From: an uncultured bacterium
GTDB lineage: Bacteria > Muiribacteriota > UBA6191
DNA length: 20,349 nt
Reading direction: 5' to 3'
NCBI GenBank assembly: GCA_964503595.1
Contig: CAZDAM010000063.1
Coordinates: 1-20,349 of the forward strand
Shown: piece by piece, positions 2,060 to 20,349 of the stretch
Layout of the letters: every line of letters begins with the position of its first letter
Position numbering within the stretch: position 1 is the first letter of the stretch
Notes under the pieces: generated by a model
Databases searched by the model: none
The model's input: only the letters and a program-made list of their open reading frames with translations
What the model was told of the DNA's origin: nothing
Program-made: the position numbers and the translations under genes

Positions 2060-2494
2060 ATGAAATATAAATCTCCTCCTTTGAGAAAGAAGAATCCCGG
2101 TATGAAGATTGATGATTCGATTTCTCAACAGGATCGCCAGAGTCTTTGTGACAAGGTTCAGTATGTGGGAAACCCGGTGCATAAACGGAATCCGGGTGAT
2201 TTTGGCCTTATTCCTCCCAGTGCAGCGAAATATCCTAAGACACTTTGTGATCCTACGGGTATTTTTCGCAAGGAAGATGCGTTGAAGGTCATGCAGGATG
2301 GAATTCGCCACGGGCTTGTAAGTCAGAGTTATGAGGGGGAGTTTCCCCGCCTTGTCTGGGGTATTCATCATCATGGCGAGAGCTGTTTTGTGCTTGAGTT
2401 TCGTTTGGATTCAGTTCAGGGAACTTATCATGGATATCCTTTGCAGAAGATGGATGCTCGTTATCAGGAAGTTTTGAAGAAATGGAAAAACTGA
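2060..2494 (+). CDS. Hypothetical 144-aa Cys/His-containing protein (SLCD..TLCD..GIHHHGESC) with no recognisable family. The start is uncertain; ATG 2102 is an alternative.
   Basis: The ORF-track version (1982) overlaps the MAPEG gene by 76 nt. An internal ATG at 2060 lies 2 nt after the MAPEG stop, and another at 2102 has a purine-rich upstream. The 3' end overlaps the next gene by 13 nt. Confidence 0.4.
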   Translation: MKYKSPPLRKKNPGMKIDDSISQQDRQSLCDKVQYVGNPVHKRNPGDFGLIPPSAAKYPKTLCDPTGIFRKEDALKVMQDGIRHGLVSQSYEGEFPRLVWGIHHHGESCFVLEFRLDSVQGTYHGYPLQKMDARYQEVLKKWKN

Positions 2495-3759
2495 GTTTTT
2501 TGATTGACTGGCTGAATCCAGACCCGGCTGAAAAAAAATTGCTTTTGTCTTCGACAATGGCAGATTTTGGCTTGCGAGGGATGGGAAAAGATTTTTTTTC
2601 ACATCTGAATAGCCTGGATGGTGGCAAGAGAGTTCAGTCGAGGTTACAGACTTCTCTATATCTGGTAGGTGACTGGTTGTCCGAACATTTCTGGCGTATG
2701 GCATATGAACCTGCCAAAGGATATGATTTAGCTGAATCTTCTTATGATTGGTTAAGGGCTCATTGCATGGTTTCAATTGGCAGGGGGTATTGTTGGCCTC
2801 ATCTGTTTTTTTATGGAGATGGAGATTCAGTAACTGCTGAGCTAAAAAATTTTCCAAAAGAATCTGTGATTCCTCTTCACTTTATAGAGGAGGGAAGTGT
2901 CCAGATTTCTCATCAGGAGTTTTTTACTTTGGTGTTGGAGTTTCTGGGAAAAATTCAGGAGAGATTGAAAAGTCAGAAGCTTTCAGATGAAGGTTTTTCT
3001 TTGGATCTGAAAAGCCTTATAGAAGAATGGAAAGATATAGATTTTCATCAGTATCGTCGTTTGGAAGCCTGTATGGGATTGGGGATTGATGAAAATCCTG
3101 ATTTTGTAGGAAGCGTTTTATCCCTTTTTGATGAATCTTCCAGGCTGGAAGATGTCTGTGAAATTGTGAGTGATGTCAATTTGGATAGTTCTGGGTTAGC
3201 ACAACTTCAGGATACTTTTCAGATTTTGCGAGATAAAGCAAATTGTGATGTTTCGGTCCTGAAAAACTGGGATACATCTGGTGCAAAACCTTCGATTCAT
3301 ACTGCTTATCAGTGGGCCAGGATTCTAAGGGAAAAACTGGACATTGATTCAGGGGCGGTTTCTGAAAAGCATTTTTCCGATCTTTTACAACTCCAGGTTG
3401 GCAAGGGCTTGGAGAAATTACCAGAAAATGCATGCTTTGGTATGGGGGAATTTCAGCCGGATGGCAAGGGATCCCTTGTTCTGACAAAAAAGCACCCAAG
3501 CAGTAAGCGTTTTCAGTTAGCGCGGCTCATTGGAGATTTTGTGATGTCTCATCAGGATTCCAGTCTGCACATAGCGGGAGAAACCTATTCCATGCGTCAA
3601 AAGATGCAAAGAGCCTTTGCCGCAGAGTTTTTGTGCCCGGCAGCTGAGCTTGAATCTTCCTATGATCCCCGCAACCGGGAGGATTTTATTTCTTCCAAAG
3701 CGATAGAGTATTCCGTATCAGAACTCGTGATTCAGCATCAGGTAGACAATTCATTTTAG
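2482..3759 (+). CDS. Hypothetical 425-aa protein with a C-terminal ImmA/IrrE (DUF955)-like module in which the HEXXH and downstream Glu zinc-ligand positions are all substituted, so it is a predicted pseudo-metallopeptidase.
   Basis: ATG at 2482 has AGGAAG upstream and overlaps the upstream gene's end. The C-terminal KRFQLARLIGDFVMSH ... QRAFAAEFLCP aligns to the ImmA/IrrE pattern rFTLAHELGHlllH ... E-ANaFAAELLMP, with H>R, E>L, H>D and E>Q/R at the ligand positions. Confidence 0.65.
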   Translation: MEKLSFLIDWLNPDPAEKKLLLSSTMADFGLRGMGKDFFSHLNSLDGGKRVQSRLQTSLYLVGDWLSEHFWRMAYEPAKGYDLAESSYDWLRAHCMVSIGRGYCWPHLFFYGDGDSVTAELKNFPKESVIPLHFIEEGSVQISHQEFFTLVLEFLGKIQERLKSQKLSDEGFSLDLKSLIEEWKDIDFHQYRRLEACMGLGIDENPDFVGSVLSLFDESSRLEDVCEIVSDVNLDSSGLAQLQDTFQILRDKANCDVSVLKNWDTSGAKPSIHTAYQWARILREKLDIDSGAVSEKHFSDLLQLQVGKGLEKLPENACFGMGEFQPDGKGSLVLTKKHPSSKRFQLARLIGDFVMSHQDSSLHIAGETYSMRQKMQRAFAAEFLCPAAELESSYDPRNREDFISSKAIEYSVSELVIQHQVDNSF

Positions 3760-4955
3760 GGAGCCTGAATGATCATGTTTTCCACAACGAAGTTGGTGAC
3801 AACAGGTTGCTGAAACTGGGAGAAATTCAGCTGGGGTAAATCAAAAGTGGCCTTCAGGGAAACTCCCTTGAAGAAGTCTGCAGTTCCACCTGCTTTTGTA
3901 ATATAGGGCTGAATGGCGAAGTCCAGCCTCTGGGGCGAGTTGGAGCTAGCTCCATCCGTGGCATCACCATACCCTCCACTGGAATTCGGTGCATTGGTAA
4001 TAGATGCACTGTTTCCGGCAATCGTCCGGTAGCCGGCTGAGATGGAGGCGTTCAAAGGGATATAGGCTCCCATATTGCCCGCGGTTTCCGTTCTGATTTC
4101 AAAAGAAGGAGTATTGGCATAGGCATAATGCTCATTCGGGTTGGCTTGATTTCTCAGATCAAAACTGAAATTTCCGTTATAGCTCTGCAATTGGGAGAGC
4201 TGGGAGAGCTGAATCTTCAAAGCATCCGGCCAGTCGGCAAGATTAAAATCGGTCACAGGACTGATATAGGCAGTGGATCCCACAATTTTGGAAATGTAGC
4301 CGGGCTTGTCGCCAATTGCAATCTGGGGACGGTTCAGGCGGGAGGCACCACTTCTTGAAATGATGTCAAAGGTATTGGAAGGTCCCATGGCAATCCAGTA
4401 GGCCCGGTTTGGAGTCAGCTCCACCAGAGGGGAAACAGAAGTCAGGGAATTATAGAACTGGGTGGAAAGCTGATTTGGAGAATGGATGAAACCAAGCCAG
4501 CGGTTGCCTTCCACGGTCATAATGGCGTGAATATGACCAAGAGATGCGTGCTGGGCCACAAATGCCGAAGTGCTGATGGTGGTCTGGGTCAAAGCCCGAA
4601 GCTGCCAGCCATACCTGTATTCCAGGGCAGGGAAAGCTTCTGTACTACAGCCTGAATCCATGGCATAAGTCCATTCCTGATTCGCGGAGACATAGTAGCC
4701 GTCATAGGCCTTGAGGGATTGGATTGCGTTGTATGAAGTAGCGGTAGGAGTGCTGTTTCCGGAATAGTGCGTAAAAATGCGCGAAGTTCGGGATATATGC
4801 CAGGCCGAGGTGATTTTGGAGGCTCCGGCACCAAAGGCTGCTGTTGCGGTTCGCGTACAGGGCAGACTTACCAGGGTGGTTCCCGTGGGAAGGGCTGCTG
4901 TCTGGGTGATCCCGGAAAACAGCAGGCCGATAAGAGTGATGATGAAGCGATGCAT
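3756..4955 (-). CDS. Secreted Ser/Thr/Asn/Gly/Tyr-rich protein (399 aa), probably beta-rich, of unknown function.
   Basis: ATG at 4955 has AGAGGAA 5 nt upstream. The N-terminus MHRFIITLIGLLFSGITQTAALP is a signal peptide. Its stop overlaps the stop of the convergent 2482-3759 gene by 4 nt. Confidence 0.65.
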   Translation of the reverse strand: MHRFIITLIGLLFSGITQTAALPTGTTLVSLPCTRTATAAFGAGASKITSAWHISRTSRIFTHYSGNSTPTATSYNAIQSLKAYDGYYVSANQEWTYAMDSGCSTEAFPALEYRYGWQLRALTQTTISTSAFVAQHASLGHIHAIMTVEGNRWLGFIHSPNQLSTQFYNSLTSVSPLVELTPNRAYWIAMGPSNTFDIISRSGASRLNRPQIAIGDKPGYISKIVGSTAYISPVTDFNLADWPDALKIQLSQLSQLQSYNGNFSFDLRNQANPNEHYAYANTPSFEIRTETAGNMGAYIPLNASISAGYRTIAGNSASITNAPNSSGGYGDATDGASSNSPQRLDFAIQPYITKAGGTADFFKGVSLKATFDLPQLNFSQFQQPVVTNFVVENMIIQAP

Positions 4956-5075: not shown

Positions 5076-6983
5076 TTGGCTAAGCTGCGCGAAATGGAAA
5101 TCACCCTGGAGCCTGATTGGGTCGGGGATATTTTTGCCCTGCTGCCAGCAGATTTTTCCTGGGACAGGCTGCATTTTCTTCATTTTCAGAAAAGTGGTCT
5201 TTCGGAGTGGCTGGCCCAGCGCGAGGAAATTCTCTACGCCTTTGAGCGATCCTACCCACGTCTCCACGAAATCGTTTTTGATCCCCGCTATCAATCGGGT
5301 GCTCTTTGTCGGTACCAGGTGTCAGGGCATCCATTGGCAGATTCCAGAGTCATGGAGGAGAGCAATTATCAGCCTCCGGGAATGCTTGGATTCACCAATC
5401 AGACTCACTGGTCCGTGCTTCCTCCTTTATTGAAAAAGGGAGATGTATTTGAGTCGGGGGTGCTTCTGAATACTCACTCGATGAGGTCTTTTCCTCCTGC
5501 CTTCTACCGTAATTTTCAGATGAATTCTCCTTATGGGCTCTGGGTTGCGGTTTTGATTTCCAAGGAGATTGTAGAAGAGTTTCGGATTCATCCCTGGAAT
5601 CTGAGCTTTCTCATCGAAGGAGCAGAGATTGAGGAGGGGCAAGTATGGGTTTTTGAAATTCCGGGAGCCTCATTCATGAACGAGGAAAATCCTGAATTAT
5701 TGGGTCTTGATGATGATGAGTCAAGGCCACGGGTTCAGGTGAGCCGCATTTTGAACTGGCAGACCTGCCAGGAGTGGATGCGTCGGGAAGTCTGTTGGGA
5801 GAAGGAGCCCTGGAAGGAAGAGCTCGGGATTCCTGATGAGCTTCAGTCCGATTTGTTGGAGGAGGAGTCCCTGGAAGCCCAGGCGAGTCTTCTAACCCGC
5901 TATGTGGCAGAAGGGATTCGAAGCTTTGCAACGGGGCTGTCCTTTGAAGCCTGGCCAAATGAAGTGCTCAGGCGGGGTTATGGGAATCCTCTGGAAAAGG
6001 CTGTTTTGCTGAAGGCTTTGCTGGTTCAGCATCAGATTCCCTGCACTCTCATGATGGCTTCGGTCAATGCCAGTTCCATGGTGCCTTCCGAGTTGCCTCA
6101 TCTGGACTTTCCAAGGCCTCTGGTGAGCGTGGAGCTGACTCCGGGGCAGCGAAAAATTCTGGATCCTTCGATTCCGATCTGGGCTGGGCTTCGCAGTGAA
6201 CGGCACTGGGCAGGAGCGGAGATTCTACCTCTGGAGTCCAGTACGGTTCTGAAGCCGTTTCGGCTTTGGGTCTCTCCTTCGGAAGGCTCCAGTCTGAAAT
6301 GGGAGATTCAGTGGAAGGCCAGCGCCAGGGATGATGAGCTGGATTGGGTTCAGATTCGTGAAACTCTGGGAGGGGTAGAAGCGCGTCGTATTTTTGAACG
6401 CTGGGGTAAATGGGATTTGAAGGAGCTTGGCAACCATCGCCAGCAGGAACTCGATTTCTGTTTTATCCGGGGTTCGGAATTCAAACTCAAGCGCATCACT
6501 TTGGAGCGGGACGGGGAGTTTGCGATTCTTCAGATTGAAGGGGAGCTTCACCGGGGATTTCAGATTCTTTCCAACGGAAACCGGGTCCGGGGTTTCTGGT
6601 TTGCTCCGATTCGAGGGTATTTTCATACTCTCTATGGCAATGGAACCCGTACCAGAGGAATTCGCTGTGAGCCACTTGCCATGGAAATGGAGCTTGAATT
6701 TCAGCATTCCCAGATGGTTGAGATTCCGGTGGATCCGTTTCAGTGGTCGTATGAGGGTATGGATTTGACCTGGTCTCAGAAGTTTGAGGCCCCACAAAAA
6801 AAATCCCGGGCTGTGATGAATCTGGAAGTCAATCGCTTCAATCTTTCTCATGAGGCCTATTCTTCTCAGATGGAGCGGTTCAAGAACTGGGCGGATTCGG
6901 GTCTGCCGTTTTTCTGGGAATCCCGGCCCCCGATGCTGCGTCGGGTGATTGATTCCTGGAAGAATCTGTTCGGGATGAATTAA
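5076..6983 (+). CDS. Large cytoplasmic protein (about 635 aa) with a transglutaminase-like (papain-fold) core flanked by N- and C-terminal domains. The catalytic Cys position is occupied by Pro, so it is predicted to be non-catalytic.
   Basis: TTG at 5076 has GAGGGTGG 8 nt upstream; ATG 5094 is the alternative start. RRGYGNPLEKAVLLKALLVQHQIPCTLM matches the transglutaminase-like/DUF3858-type pattern G-x-G-x-C-x-D-x-A-x-L-L-x-A-L-L-R-A-x-G-I-P-A-R with C>P. There is no signal peptide. Confidence 0.55.
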   Translation: MAKLREMEITLEPDWVGDIFALLPADFSWDRLHFLHFQKSGLSEWLAQREEILYAFERSYPRLHEIVFDPRYQSGALCRYQVSGHPLADSRVMEESNYQPPGMLGFTNQTHWSVLPPLLKKGDVFESGVLLNTHSMRSFPPAFYRNFQMNSPYGLWVAVLISKEIVEEFRIHPWNLSFLIEGAEIEEGQVWVFEIPGASFMNEENPELLGLDDDESRPRVQVSRILNWQTCQEWMRREVCWEKEPWKEELGIPDELQSDLLEEESLEAQASLLTRYVAEGIRSFATGLSFEAWPNEVLRRGYGNPLEKAVLLKALLVQHQIPCTLMMASVNASSMVPSELPHLDFPRPLVSVELTPGQRKILDPSIPIWAGLRSERHWAGAEILPLESSTVLKPFRLWVSPSEGSSLKWEIQWKASARDDELDWVQIRETLGGVEARRIFERWGKWDLKELGNHRQQELDFCFIRGSEFKLKRITLERDGEFAILQIEGELHRGFQILSNGNRVRGFWFAPIRGYFHTLYGNGTRTRGIRCEPLAMEMELEFQHSQMVEIPVDPFQWSYEGMDLTWSQKFEAPQKKSRAVMNLEVNRFNLSHEAYSSQMERFKNWADSGLPFFWESRPPMLRRVIDSWKNLFGMN

Positions 6984-16770: not shown

Positions 16771-17883
16771 TCAAGGCCCTGCAATTCTGGTGCGATTTCG
16801 TGTGAGGGCGGTCAGTTCATTCAAAAAGGTGGCGTTTTCCTCGGGAGTACCGATGGTGACCCGCACGGCTCCGTTGGGTTCCAGGGGAATGGGGCGTACC
16901 GCAACACCTTTGTGCAAAAGACCGCTGTAGATTTCCTGGGCCTGAAGACCCCCTGTGAAGAGCAGAAAATTGGCCAGGGAAGGATAAACCTTCATACCCA
17001 GCTTTTCCAGAGCAGGTTTGAGTTCATCACGACCCTGAAGGGCCGTGCTTCGCACATGCTCCAGCCATTTTCCATCTTCAAGGGCGGCTAAAGCTCCGAC
17101 CTGAGCTACATGGTTGATGTGAAAGGGCAGCCGGACCCGGTTGAGGATATCCTGAAGCTCGGGTCTTTGAATGGAATAGCCAATGCGGACTCCGCTCAGG
17201 CCATAGGCTTTGCTGAAAGTCCTTGTGATGATCAGATTTGGATATTCCTTCAGAAAGGAAAGGCTGTCAGGATAGTCACAAAGATCATAAGCGTACTCAA
17301 AATAGGCTTCATCCAGAACCACCAGAGGTTCGTGTCTGAGAGCTTTGAAAAAATCCTGGAGCTCCTGGCGGGTAAACCAGGTTCCGGTTGGATTGTTGGG
17401 GTTACAGAGCCAGACCACCCGGGTGTTTTCATGGACTGCCTGAGCCATTGCCGGAAGATCGTGCTTGAGTTCCACCATGGGAACTATGGTTTCTTCAATC
17501 TGGCCAAGCCCCGCCAGGATTCCATAGATTGGAAAGGTCATGCTGGCTCTTACGGCGTGGCTTCCCTTCGGAAGGAAGGCCTTCACGATATGGGTCAGGA
17601 TTTCTTCGGTTCCGTTTCCCAGATGAATCCAGCTGGTTTCGACACCAAGCTTTGCAGCCAGAGTTTCCCTGAGCTTCAGGGAATTGGGGTCCGGATACCA
17701 GTGGATTTCCTGAAGGGATTCCTGCATGGCCAAAAGGGCTTTTGGGGAAGGTCCCAGAGTGTTTTCATTCGAGGCCAGCTTGGCCACTTTTTTCAGTCCG
17801 TATTCCCGGCGGATTTCTTCCAGGGGTTTGCCGGGCTGGTAGGGTTTGACATTGAGAATATGCCTGGGGATCAGTTCTGCCAT
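16771..17883 (-). CDS. hisC: Histidinol-phosphate aminotransferase.
   Basis: ATG follows GAGGAGA. The blocks KLASNENTLGPSP, NPNNPTG and the PLP-lysine block TFSKAYGLSGVRIGY are present. The product is 370 aa. Confidence 0.9.
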   Translation of the reverse strand: MAELIPRHILNVKPYQPGKPLEEIRREYGLKKVAKLASNENTLGPSPKALLAMQESLQEIHWYPDPNSLKLRETLAAKLGVETSWIHLGNGTEEILTHIVKAFLPKGSHAVRASMTFPIYGILAGLGQIEETIVPMVELKHDLPAMAQAVHENTRVVWLCNPNNPTGTWFTRQELQDFFKALRHEPLVVLDEAYFEYAYDLCDYPDSLSFLKEYPNLIITRTFSKAYGLSGVRIGYSIQRPELQDILNRVRLPFHINHVAQVGALAALEDGKWLEHVRSTALQGRDELKPALEKLGMKVYPSLANFLLFTGGLQAQEIYSGLLHKGVAVRPIPLEPNGAVRVTIGTPEENATFLNELTALTRNRTRIAGP

Positions 17884-17916
17884 CCTGTCTCCTCATGTTT
17901 TGGAGCGCATTGTAGG

Positions 17917-18927
17917 CTATTGGTGTTTGGGGCTCAAGTCCGCGTCCTCAAGGGCGGTTTGAAAGACAGTCTGAAACCTTTTGAAATCCTCAATAAACGG
18001 CATGTGACCCAGTCCTGAAATTTCATAGAGGCGGGAGCCGGGAATCCTGATTCTGGAAATCTTGCCCAGACGGTCATAGCGGCCCAGTTCATAGGAATCG
18101 GCATCCTTCTGAAAGCCCCGTCCGGGGCCGGTGCGATCTCTTGTACCCAGAATCAGGCTGGTGGGGACTCTGAGCTTTTTGAAGTCTTCCACCACGGGCT
18201 GGGAGAAGATCATGTCGTAGGTCAGGGCGTTGTTCCAGGCAATCCGTTCATGATCCGGACCATTGAGCCAGCCGATATGGGTCTGAATGAGGCTTTCGTA
18301 GGCCTCGGACCACTGCCCGTCGTAGTAGTTCTTCTTTTGGTAGACCCGAATACCCTCGGCAGTTTTGGCAAGTTCGGACTGATAGAAAAACTCCACATCC
18401 TTATAGTGGGCGTGATCCAGGTAATTTTCCAGACCAATCGGATTGATCAGAAAGAGATGACGGGTAGATTCCGGATACATCAGGGCAAAGCGGGTTGCCA
18501 GCATCCCGCCCATGGAATGGCCGATAACGATGACCTCGGAAATATTCAGGGACTCCATGAGTTTGTGGGTATTTCTGGCCAGCTGAGGAAATCCAAACTG
18601 GTAATAGGCTGGCTTGGATGATTTTCCAAACCCGATCTGATCGGGAATCAGGACACCAAAACCCATCTTGTGGAGTACTTCAATGACCGGTTTGAAATAG
18701 TATCCGGAGAAATTCTTGCCATGAAGAAGCAGGAAGGTGGGCTGAGCATTTCTGGCCTTGAGATGCATGTAAGCCATTTCAAGAGACTGATTCTGGCTTC
18801 GAAAGGCAAAGGACTCGACCGGGTAGGGGTAGGCATATCGGGTGAGTCGGGCATCATAGACAGGAGCTTCTGACCAAAGAACAGATGCAAAGATGAGGGC
18901 AAGCAGGCTGAAAAAGGGTTTTTGCAT
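17917..18927 (-). CDS. Secreted alpha/beta-fold hydrolase with a GHSMGG nucleophile elbow.
   Basis: ATG at 18927 follows GAGGAGAA; the TTG at 18990 is rejected. The signal peptide is MQKPFFSLLALIFASVLWSEA. The motifs LLHGKNFSG (HG oxyanion) and VIGHSMGG are present. Confidence 0.8.
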   Translation of the reverse strand: MQKPFFSLLALIFASVLWSEAPVYDARLTRYAYPYPVESFAFRSQNQSLEMAYMHLKARNAQPTFLLLHGKNFSGYYFKPVIEVLHKMGFGVLIPDQIGFGKSSKPAYYQFGFPQLARNTHKLMESLNISEVIVIGHSMGGMLATRFALMYPESTRHLFLINPIGLENYLDHAHYKDVEFFYQSELAKTAEGIRVYQKKNYYDGQWSEAYESLIQTHIGWLNGPDHERIAWNNALTYDMIFSQPVVEDFKKLRVPTSLILGTRDRTGPGRGFQKDADSYELGRYDRLGKISRIRIPGSRLYEISGLGHMPFIEDFKRFQTVFQTALEDADLSPKHQ

Positions 18928-19040: not shown

Positions 19041-19736
19041 TCAGGAAGCCATATCAAAGAGCAGAATCTCGGCATTCCTGCCATTCTGGATGCTCAGGGT
19101 TTCACCGGCCTTGAGAATCAGGGCATCGCCAGCCTTCAGAAGCTTCTGGTTGGCCTGCACGCTTCCCCTGGCAACATGAAGCCAGCCAATCCGGTCTGCT
19201 GCCAGTTGATGGGAAATCTGATGCTCAGGCTGAAGAATTGCCGTATGAAGATCCACATTCTGTCTGATGTGAACAGCTCCATCTGTCTTCCGGGATGAGG
19301 CGATCAGGCAGAGTTTTCCTGTTCTTTCCTCCGTTGGAACATGAAGCTGTTCGTAGCCAGGCTGAATTTCCAGGGTATCGGGCTGAATCCAGATCTGAAG
19401 CAGATGCACGTTATTTTGGGAGGAAGGGTTGAACTCGCTGTGATGAACTCCTGTTCCGGCACTCATTTTCTGAATATCTCCGGGGCGGATGATGGAGCCG
19501 TTTCCCATACTGTCCTTATGTTCCAGTTCTCCCTCAAGAATCCAGGTCAGGATTTCCATATCGCGGTGGGAATGGGTATCAAAGCCCATCTTGGGGGCGA
19601 CAATGTCATCGTTGATGACTCTCAGCGGGCCGTATCCCATAAAATTCGGGTCATAATAGTGGGCAAAGCTGAAGGTATGGGCACTTTTCAGCCAGCCCAG
19701 ATTGCTTTGTCCTCTCTCCGATGCTTTTCGAATCAT
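19041..19736 (-). CDS. Pirin-family (cupin) protein.
   Basis: ATG at 19736 follows AAGGAG; the upstream ATG at 19832 lacks an SD and overlaps the repeat region. Pirin blocks are GWLKSAHTFSFAHYYDP, GFDTHSHRDMEI and MSAGTGVHHSEFN. Confidence 0.85.
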   Translation of the reverse strand: MIRKASERGQSNLGWLKSAHTFSFAHYYDPNFMGYGPLRVINDDIVAPKMGFDTHSHRDMEILTWILEGELEHKDSMGNGSIIRPGDIQKMSAGTGVHHSEFNPSSQNNVHLLQIWIQPDTLEIQPGYEQLHVPTEERTGKLCLIASSRKTDGAVHIRQNVDLHTAILQPEHQISHQLAADRIGWLHVARGSVQANQKLLKAGDALILKAGETLSIQNGRNAEILLFDMAS

Positions 19737-19820
19737 GTTGCACTCCTTTGTGGTAAGGACTCCACCGCAATTCCTGTGCCAAGTCTGGATGATCTGATAT
19801 TTCCAGGCTTTGTAGCAAAG

Positions 19821-19870
19821 TTTATGTTGCATGAAGTGTTGCGCGAATCAGCTTTATGGTGTTGCATGAA
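19821..19870. repeat. Direct repeats TTTATG(g)TGTTGCATGAA x2, with a third TGTTGC, in the divergent promoter region between pirin and the sigma-54-type activator. They are candidate regulator-binding sites.
   Basis: TGTTGCATGAA occurs at 19825-19835 and 19860-19870. TGTTGC also occurs at 19838-19843. This was seen directly. Confidence 0.4.
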
Positions 19871-19897
19871 ACGTAAAATGCAGTAAACAGTCAGGCT

Positions 19898-20349
19898 GTG
19901 GAAAGATGTCTTCATCTGGCGAAAACTCTTGCCCGCAGTCCTTCCGGAGTTCTGTTCTCAGGCGAGAGCGGAACCGGAAAAGAGCTGATAGCAGTTTTTC
20001 TCTATCAGCATTCACCCCGCCATGACAAGCCGTTTCTGAGTCTGAACTGTGGCCTGTTGCACGAAGGTTTACAGAATTCCGGGCTTTTCGGATATGCCAG
20101 AGCAGCCTTTATCGGATCTCTGGAGAGTCGCAGCGGCTATTTTGAAGAGGCTCATACCGGAACGCTTTTTCTGGATGAAATCGGTGAGCTGAGCCCTAAG
20201 GCCCAGGTGGCCCTTTTAAGGGTTCTGGAAACTGGAGGCATCAACTGGATCGGTGAAGCCTGGGAAAGACGGGTGGATGTCAGAGTGATCGCAGCCACCC
20301 ACCGAAATCTGGATCAGATGGTCGAAGGGGGAAAATTCCTCGAGGGCCT
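19898..20349 (+). CDS. Sigma-54-interaction (AAA+) domain transcriptional activator, 5' partial (it continues beyond the window). It has no N-terminal receiver or sensory domain and carries a variant GAFTGA loop (AAFIGS).
   Basis: The reading frame opens after a TAA at 19874; the first possible start is GTG 19898. The Walker A block VLFSGESGTGKE begins only about 17 residues in. TLFLDEIGEL, ALLRVLETG and RVIAATHRNL are present. GYARAAFIGS occupies the position of GHEKGAFTGA. Confidence 0.7.
   Translation, partial: MERCLHLAKTLARSPSGVLFSGESGTGKELIAVFLYQHSPRHDKPFLSLNCGLLHEGLQNSGLFGYARAAFIGSLESRSGYFEEAHTGTLFLDEIGELSPKAQVALLRVLETGGINWIGEAWERRVDVRVIAATHRNLDQMVEGGKFLEG

Follow-up and report, generated by a model that had tools for sequence, protein, structure and literature searches.

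Can a protein built like a sigma-54 activator still activate when the motifs that serve sigma-54 contact and ATP hydrolysis have been replaced, and what would it do at a promoter if it cannot? The question is raised by a gene at the right-hand end of a complete 20,349-bp NCBI contig (CAZDAM010000063.1) from an uncultured bacterium of the Muiribacteriota, the whole of which was analysed and is called the window here. The gene encodes a regulator (P0121; 301 aa) that belongs by fold and domain order to the superfamily of bacterial enhancer-binding proteins (EBPs), and it lies divergent from a pirin gene, across a spacer that holds a sigma-54-type promoter and a set of direct repeats. Judged by its sequence, the protein fails three defining features of functional sigma-54 activators, namely the Thr of the GAFTGA loop, the R131-type coupler and the RxDxxxR motif. 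The answer that we tentatively prefer, though with considerable doubt, is that the regulator is a natural 'repressor-form' EBP, which would occupy the repeats but could not activate alone; the annotation 'sigma-54-dependent Fis family transcriptional regulator' would be an over-call for this gene.

The frame that carries the Walker A motif is closed upstream by an in-frame TAA, and the GTG at 19898 is the sole standard start codon 3' of that stop; it is preceded by only AGG, 2 nt upstream, as a ribosome-binding site, and the Walker A motif follows 21 residues after it. Further upstream there are 4 stops in 59 codons of the same frame, while pirin begins on the minus strand at 19736, at a distance of 161 bp; together these leave no room for a receiver, GAF or PAS domain. 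The window DNA is 100% identical in ENA ERZ27251165 (L004) and in Logan ERR4674194 (L007), and given this identity across three assemblies neither the stop codon nor the unusual loop is an assembly error. The preliminary description of this locus had the frame opening only after the stop, without an N-terminal regulatory domain, which is borne out by the GTG start and by the full-length protein; an upstream extension or a sequencing error at the stop, for which it had allowed, is ruled out by the four frame stops and the three identical assemblies. The features at the start of the gene are as follows.

19874-19876, plus strand: in-frame TAA, overlapping a putative -10 hexamer TAAAAT at 19874-19879 (the hexamer is our own reading of the sequence).
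19878-19886, plus strand: mini open reading frame (ORF) ATG-CAG-TAA, two codons, out of frame, 12 nt 5' of the GTG and directly after the possible -10.
19889-19897, plus strand: untranslated codons S-Q-A, directly before the GTG.
19898-20349, plus strand: regulator gene, first 150 of 301 codons, with about 454 bp more beyond the window end.

The complete protein was found in a HMMER scan of 1.84 billion representative proteins and is the same as the window protein over residues 1-150; the 1.6-kb contig L004 shares 914 identical bases with the end of the window and carries the full gene at its positions 463-1368. While the partial protein in the window already matches PF00158 at E=2.4e-50, the complete one has PF00158 (residues 1-160; E=4e-53, 180 bits), AAA_lid_14 (166-244; E=2.5e-22) and HTH_8 (269-294; E=1.8e-8), and no other domains. 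The PspF-like architecture that had been suggested from the partial gene is therefore confirmed, and L004 supplies the C-terminal helix-turn-helix (HTH), of the Fis type, that was to be sought downstream. The PF00158 score compares with 212 bits for PspF and 223-254 bits for near relatives, a deficit of 30-70 bits. By BLASTP the protein is 38% identical to PspF over 298 aa and begins at PspF L19, inside the first AAA+ helix (alpha-1) and 18 residues later than PspF itself. The gene downstream of the regulator is a 38-aa fragment only, without a family match. The NCBI contig (at 20349) and the Logan ERR4674194 contig (at L007 position 1), two independent assemblies, stop at the same base inside the regulator gene, while ENA ERZ27251165 reads through; this shared end lies directly past the FLEG codons and suggests a branch point that is strain-variable or repeat-like.

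The departures of the protein from its family were located by alignment of about 430 EBP domains, in which 75 columns are at least 85% conserved; residues are mapped in PspF numbering. The regulator keeps 66 of the 75 columns and deviates at nine, seven of which fall in the L1 region or in the RxD arginine-finger motif (post hoc hypergeometric p = 3e-4). The nine deviations, together with a tenth substitution at a less conserved column and the motifs in which they lie, are listed here.

Y36: PspF H50, now Tyr.
L53: PspF A67, an 86%-conserved Ala, now Leu.
N60: PspF D74 (E in most relatives), now Asn; N in 3/414 relatives.
G62: PspF E76, E to G; G in about 1/417 relatives.
A69: PspF G83, G to A; A in about 1/415 relatives.
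I72: PspF T86, T to I; relatives have T in 402, S in 8, V in 3 and I in 0 of 416.
S74: PspF A88, A to S; S in 2/415 relatives.
L148: PspF R162, R to L; R in 380/396 relatives.
G150: PspF D164, D to G; D in 376/393 relatives.
20246-20248, plus strand: W117, equivalent to PspF R131 in the pre-sensor-I insertion (L2), the less conserved column; R in 287, P in 88, K in 16 and W in 0 of 414 relatives.
19961-19984, plus strand: Walker A GESGTGKE, with K28 equivalent to PspF K42, conserved.
20090-20119, plus strand: L1 loop GYARAAFIGS, with the core AAFIGS (20102-20119) in place of GAFTGA.
20174-20179, plus strand: Walker B D93-E94, equivalent to PspF D107-E108, conserved.
20336-20347, plus strand: F-L-E-G for F-R-x-D, with the arginine finger and D164 lost; R154, equivalent to PspF R168, lies beyond the window.

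Loop lengths are fixed by ungapped alignment to ZraR, NtrC1 and PspF. GYARAAFIGS stands in ungapped register with GHEKGAFTGA of relatives, so the L1 loop is of full length, and the pre-sensor-I insertion is likewise of normal length, ungapped against ZraR, but has Trp in place of the R131-type residue. That the L1 loop is non-canonical had been noticed at the outset and holds on comparison, Ile at the Thr position being found in none of the aligned relatives; the further statement that both the Thr and the second Gly of GAFTGA are substituted is right for the Thr only, as the second Gly is kept (G73) and the changed positions are Gly1, Thr4 and Ala6. The rest of the AAA+ machinery had been taken as intact, but the RxDxxxR motif reads LEGLFFR (LxGxxxR), in which R162 and D164 are replaced and R168 is kept. 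Also retained are the equivalents of K42, N64, F85, G87, E97, D107/E108, T148 and R227, and the HTH, so that Walker A, Walker B (LFLDE), the N64 switch (LNC) and sensor II (WPGNVREL) are all present. The Ala at the E81 position was considered as a further anomaly and dropped, since this column is naturally variable (E 148, V 131, A 56).

What these substitutions might do can be judged from PspF, NtrC and NifA mutants, whose properties are here transferred to a protein 38-48% identical to those three. L1 loops are known to enclose the sigma-54 N-terminus. The conserved GAFTGA Thr is critical for contact with sigma-54 and most GAFTGA substitutions are severe, although NorR tolerates several at the second Gly (PMC2941729), and Thr to Pro inactivated NifA (PMC4641369). 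Exact GAFTGA motifs are not universal, with 12 of 37 EBPs in one Desulfovibrio genome departing from them (PMC4641369). PspF R131A has ATPase activity below 0.1 and makes no stable sigma-54 contact (PMC2745333), while R162 of PspF is described as the genuine R-finger within an RxDxxxR motif that is ubiquitous in bacterial EBPs, and both R162A and D164A have a kcat of about 0.2 and form constitutive hexamers (PMC3419264). The preliminary description had cast the regulator as an always-on activator; the additional loss of the R162, D164 and R131 equivalents argues against autonomous ATP-driven activation, and of the other roles that it had proposed, a repressor or an ATPase partner, both are viable and are favoured here.

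The spacer was likewise said to lack a GG-N10-GC sigma-54 promoter, but a near-consensus one lies on the minus strand, reading towards pirin, and the suggestion that the locus may belong to a different sigma factor is weakened by it. The element, 5'-TTGGCAC-AGGAA-TTGCG-3', differs from TGGCAC-N5-TTGCA at a single position. The window holds 2 matches of this quality (no more than one mismatch) against 0.47 expected, the other being without GG and inside hisC; the analytic expectation for the 161-bp spacer is about 0.002. A start site is predicted near 19755, and the minus strand past the promoter reads GTGGAGTCCTTACCACA-AAGGAG-TGCAAC-ATG, a strong ribosome-binding site followed by the pirin start. 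The direct repeats noted in the spacer do exist, the conserved unit being an 11-mer found three times there and once more within the regulator gene.

19781-19766, minus strand: sigma-54-type promoter TGGCACAGGAATTGCG (TGGCAC-AGGAA-TTGCG), with GG at 19780-19779 and GC at 19768-19767.
19743-19748, minus strand: Shine-Dalgarno AAGGAG, with 6 nt between it and the pirin ATG (19736), as seen in the sequence itself.
19825-19835, plus strand: repeat R1, TGTTGCATGAA, centred about -75 from the predicted sigma-54 start site.
19837-19847, plus strand: repeat R2, TGTTGCGCGAA, centred about -87.
19860-19870, plus strand: repeat R3, TGTTGCATGAA, centred about -110, abutting the putative -10 of the regulator gene.
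20055-20065, plus strand: repeat R4, TGTTGCACGAA, inside the regulator gene over codons L52-E55, a candidate intragenic operator.

The consensus TGTTGCRYGAA has exactly four perfect matches in 20 kb, all on the plus strand at this locus, where about 0.04 would be expected. The interval from -75 to -110 is the usual distance for an enhancer. R4 covers L53, one of the nine deviant residues, and either of the two, DNA site or protein sequence, may have shaped the other. By inspection we see no convincing dyad-symmetric, NifA-type (TGT-N10-ACA) or IHF-like sites in the spacer, where the one inverted repeat detected has arms that are 93 nt apart and 72% complementary; no terminator reached the scan threshold there. 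The 20-kb window contains no rpoN, and no Rfam families or tRNAs.

Some hint of constraint on the spacer comes from a sister strain. A pirin protein 98% identical to that of the window led to L005, a 916-bp Logan contig from SRR14005094 that is 96.9% identical to the window over 893 bp. In its spacer the -24/-12 element, the ribosome-binding site and R1-R3 are all unchanged, while seven other bases differ, in only two clusters: four lie immediately past the -12 element and three in the interval from R2 to R3. Support for constraint on the promoter and repeats is therefore weak. The homology breaks off at 19872/19873, immediately behind R3 and 1 nt short of the TAA, and past the break L005 (1-23) consists of two AATGAATGAAAC units before the contig ends, so that the break could be a real structural difference at the 5' edge of the regulator gene or an artefact of the contig tip. 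The S-Q-A codons match the family motif S-x-A-M in register (180/192 aligned relatives have the S and 128/250 the A), with the GTG aligning to the conserved Met, and may be what is left of a coding region that once extended further 5'; when the longer translation is aligned to profiles, the match begins upstream of the GTG. Taken with the poor start, the sensor-bearing relatives and the strain breakpoint, these features suggest that the regulator descended from a longer gene. A strain divergence of 3% is too little for nine conserved-site substitutions, and the loop and finger changes are thus probably older than any truncation.

The relatives of the regulator are distant. None above 50% identity was found in GTDB genomes, JGI metagenomes (searched with the exact enhancer 28-mer and with protein patterns), a 5.8-billion-protein index or the 1.84-billion representative library, and in a set of about 15 billion proteins clustered at 90% the protein stands as a singleton. 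Its best full-length relatives are no more than 48% identical and are ordinary NtrC/AtoC-, PAS- or GAF-type activators, most of the closest being about 450 aa long with REC, PAS or GAF domains; the nearest relatives inspected (no more than 56% identical) read GAFTGA or a close variant. Among solved structures the closest are canonical activators, ZraR (8e-68) and then NtrC4, NifA and NtrC1, with NtrX (3e-37) and VpsR (2.5e-36) far weaker matches. Four other EBP-like proteins (P0138, P0140, P0143 and P0146), hits in the scan of 1.84 billion representatives, have two tandem AAA+ domains with complementary decay: domain 1 keeps Walker A/B without the RxD arginine finger, while domain 2 keeps FREDLYxRL with degenerate Walker A/B (e.g. 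GEPGSEIE / VLLGV), an arrangement that looks like a built-in division of labour between cis and trans functions.

In the mechanism that we propose for a repressor-form EBP, the HTH would bind the four TGTTGCRYGAA sites, of which three lie at -75 to -110 and the fourth within the regulator gene. With Walker A/B, the N64 switch, sensor II and R168 all retained, the protein would still bind ATP and oligomerise. It would not carry out autonomous sigma-54 remodelling coupled to ATP hydrolysis, as it has lost the Thr that contacts sigma-54 (T86I), the Arg that couples the loops (R131W) and the arginine finger with its Asp (R162L, D164G). The target would be the sigma-54 promoter driving a pirin/hydrolase operon, perhaps with HisC, divergent from the regulator; with the enhancer occupied, this promoter would be held or modulated. 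The regulator would probably repress its own promoter too, as R3 abuts the TAAAAT at 19874-19879 and R4 is intragenic. For activation a second EBP, of the canonical kind, would then be required, which might compete with the regulator or join it in mixed rings and donate the arginine finger. That the ORF runs intact for 301 codons, and that the HTH, the Walker motifs and sensor II persist, speaks for selection on some remaining function; random decay as the source of the deviations was considered and is disfavoured by their clustering and by the intact ORF. Several observations weigh against the repressor-form explanation. A consensus sigma-54 promoter with well-placed upstream sites is what a working activator would have, and a degenerate loop is no proof of inactivity, as DVUA0100 (GVATGV) is predicted still to serve sigma-54 promoters (PMC4641369). 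The repeats are direct rather than the dyads typical of EBP sites, and there is no convincing sigma-70 promoter for the protein to repress (none scoring at least 9/12 in 19600-20050; weak 8/12 candidates by eye). Neither the 20-kb window nor the 1.6-kb contig L004 shows a second EBP, no orthologues were found, such that AAFIGS and LxGxxxR are seen in one lineage only, and the conservation of the spacer is that of one sister strain with seven substitutions in just two clusters.

It is unlikely, although hardly negligible, that the protein is instead a genuine constitutive activator of the pirin operon, using a non-canonical L1 loop and R154 (PspF R168) as its sole trans-arginine, and controlled through its own expression or by an unseen partner protein. 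Its layout is the textbook one, with a divergent gene, three sites at -75 to -110, TGGCAC-N5-TTGCG and a strong Shine-Dalgarno; the loop length and the equivalents of F85, G87, E97, Walker A/B, R168 and R227 are kept, the closest solved relatives are canonical, and DVUA0100 of Desulfovibrio vulgaris offers a precedent. The F-I-G of the loop also keeps an aromatic-hydrophobic-Gly tip that could grip the sigma-54 N-terminus, and its likeness to generic AAA+ pore loops is our own speculation. However, substitutions of R131, R162 and D164 each nearly abolish PspF ATPase and T86 is critical, and all four are changed here; Thr to Pro was enough to inactivate NifA, neither Ile at the Thr nor Trp at R131 occurs among about 415 relatives, and the translation signals of the gene are weak, a GTG with AGG only 2 nt upstream. 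The loss of the GAFTGA signature recalls instead the EBP homologues known to act with sigma-70, and the regulator would then be a sigma-54-independent factor of the TyrR, NtrX, Rhodobacter NtrC or VpsR kind, activating or repressing sigma-70 promoters in the spacer by way of its HTH, with ATP as a ligand only, and leaving the -24/-12 match unused or as a coincidence. By our reading a weak sigma-70-like pair, TTGCTA-18-GATCAT, does lie on the minus strand between R1 and the -24, with R1 and R2 at class-I distances. We consider this improbable: TyrR, Caulobacter and Rhodobacter NtrC and NtrX have a deleted or shortened L1 loop together with N-terminal sensor domains, the opposite of what is found here, TyrR keeps the RxDxxxR that is lost here, the promoter scan gave no sigma-70 site of at least 9/12, and a chance -24/-12 match in the spacer has the low expectation given above.

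About as improbable is that the gene is a recently truncated and dead remnant of a full-length EBP on its way to a pseudogene, a deletion having taken the N-terminal domain and native start and left the promoter and repeats as ancestral relics. The end of sister-strain homology at the 5' edge of the gene, the S-Q-A codons in register with S-x-A-M, the GTG with its poor Shine-Dalgarno, the longer sensor-bearing relatives and the singleton status of the protein would all fit such a history. But the 301 codons are open without frameshift or stop, the 66 conserved columns and the HTH are kept, the deviations are clustered rather than random, the sequence is identical in three assemblies, and an event at the strain level (3%) is too recent for nine conserved-site substitutions. 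A still less probable reading is that the protein is a naturally evolved 'half-machine', which has kept its cis ATP site and enhancer-binding domain and shed its trans arginine finger and sigma-54 loop, to serve only as a poison or governor subunit; as such it could act in mixed rings with a canonical EBP or compete for its enhancer. We know of no natural EBP for which such a built-in dominant-negative layer of control at a sigma-54 promoter has been described.

Comparison with known systems places the repressor-form explanation in context. PspF shares with the regulator an AAA+ domain and C-terminal HTH without an N-terminal sensor, and divergence from a sigma-54 target promoter with upstream sites; it differs in having GAFTGA, R131 and RxDxxxR rather than AAFIGS, Trp and LxGxxxR, and in its neighbour, which is pspA and not pirin, and PspF W56, the PspA contact, is a His (H42) here. 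In its lesions the protein resembles NtrC 'repressor' mutants (GAFTGA or R294 alleles), which can still bind both nucleotide and DNA, whereas their ATP hydrolysis is no longer coupled to opening by sigma-54; R294 is PspF R162 (PMC3419264) and L148 in our protein. Those alleles are single laboratory mutations, whereas the losses here are seemingly natural, multiple and accompanied by loss of the sensor domain. Both such mutants and dual repressor-activator EBPs serve as precedents (PMC12754779), the dual regulators FlbD, FleQ and PexR differing in that they retain full activator competence. TyrR, NtrX, Rhodobacter/Caulobacter NtrC and VpsR also carry PF00158 without a canonical GAFTGA and regulate by DNA binding at sigma-70 promoters, but TyrR has a 7-residue gap at L1 in the same alignment where our loop is of full length, with its R-finger lost and a -24/-12 promoter adjoining, and VpsR and NtrX match the regulator much less well than do ZraR, NtrC1 or NifA. 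DVUA0100 (GVATGV) and DVU2960 (GAFPGA) of Desulfovibrio vulgaris are likewise natural EBPs with a substituted GAFTGA, although the former keeps the Thr (PMC4641369). A variant with an obligate partner has its model in HrpR/HrpS, which differ from our protein in having canonical motifs and tandem genes, no second EBP gene being seen adjoining the regulator. In Pseudomonas syringae these two proteins have no regulatory domain, function solely when assembled into a mixed hexamer, and are under the control of a partner protein.

EBP homologues with a degenerate GAFTGA are thus already known, and the kind is not new; what is new is the combination of a missing sensor domain, a loop of full length with substituted residues and the loss of the arginine finger with an adjoining consensus sigma-54 promoter whose repeats resemble an enhancer. 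The general view is that sigma-54 promoters stay silent without a competent EBP that hydrolyses ATP. Should the regulator still activate, the residues that work on PspF and NtrC marked as essential can be replaced more readily than supposed; should it not, it offers an example from nature of an EBP scaffold recycled as a repressor or governor. As it comes from a single uncultured lineage, it is for now an anecdote and not a family.

The genes that the sigma-54-type promoter would serve lie to its left on the minus strand.

19041-19736, minus strand: pirin / YhhW-type bicupin gene, 231 aa, the first gene downstream of the promoter.
17917-18927, minus strand: alpha/beta hydrolase of the secreted type, 336 aa, behind pirin on the same strand.
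16771-17883, minus strand: HisC-type aminotransferase, behind the hydrolase on the same strand.

No minus-strand terminator was found among the three, which may form one operon. A public gene call (P0507; 263 aa) starts pirin at the ATG at 19832 (19041-19832, minus strand) and so runs through the sigma-54-type promoter and R1; this longer call is probably wrong, because the 231-aa form starting at 19736 has the AAGGAG and matches homologues of 231-234 aa. Synteny was also pursued through a 61% identical pirin homologue (L006), whose gene sits behind an AcrB-type gene without an EBP, and this line was set aside. Elsewhere in the window, four long ORFs of 332-635 aa (161-1159, 2482-3759, 3756-4955 and 5076-6983) have no Pfam or NCBIfam match at E<=1e-5 and the ORF at 9010-10440 has a weak MVP-shoulder-like match only, the contig being from a poorly characterised lineage. 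Finally, a sigma-70-like promoter, TTGAGC-17-TACAAT (9/12), lies at 17909-17937 on the minus strand, just 5' of hisC at the end of the hydrolase gene, and hisC may also be transcribed independently of the pirin promoter.

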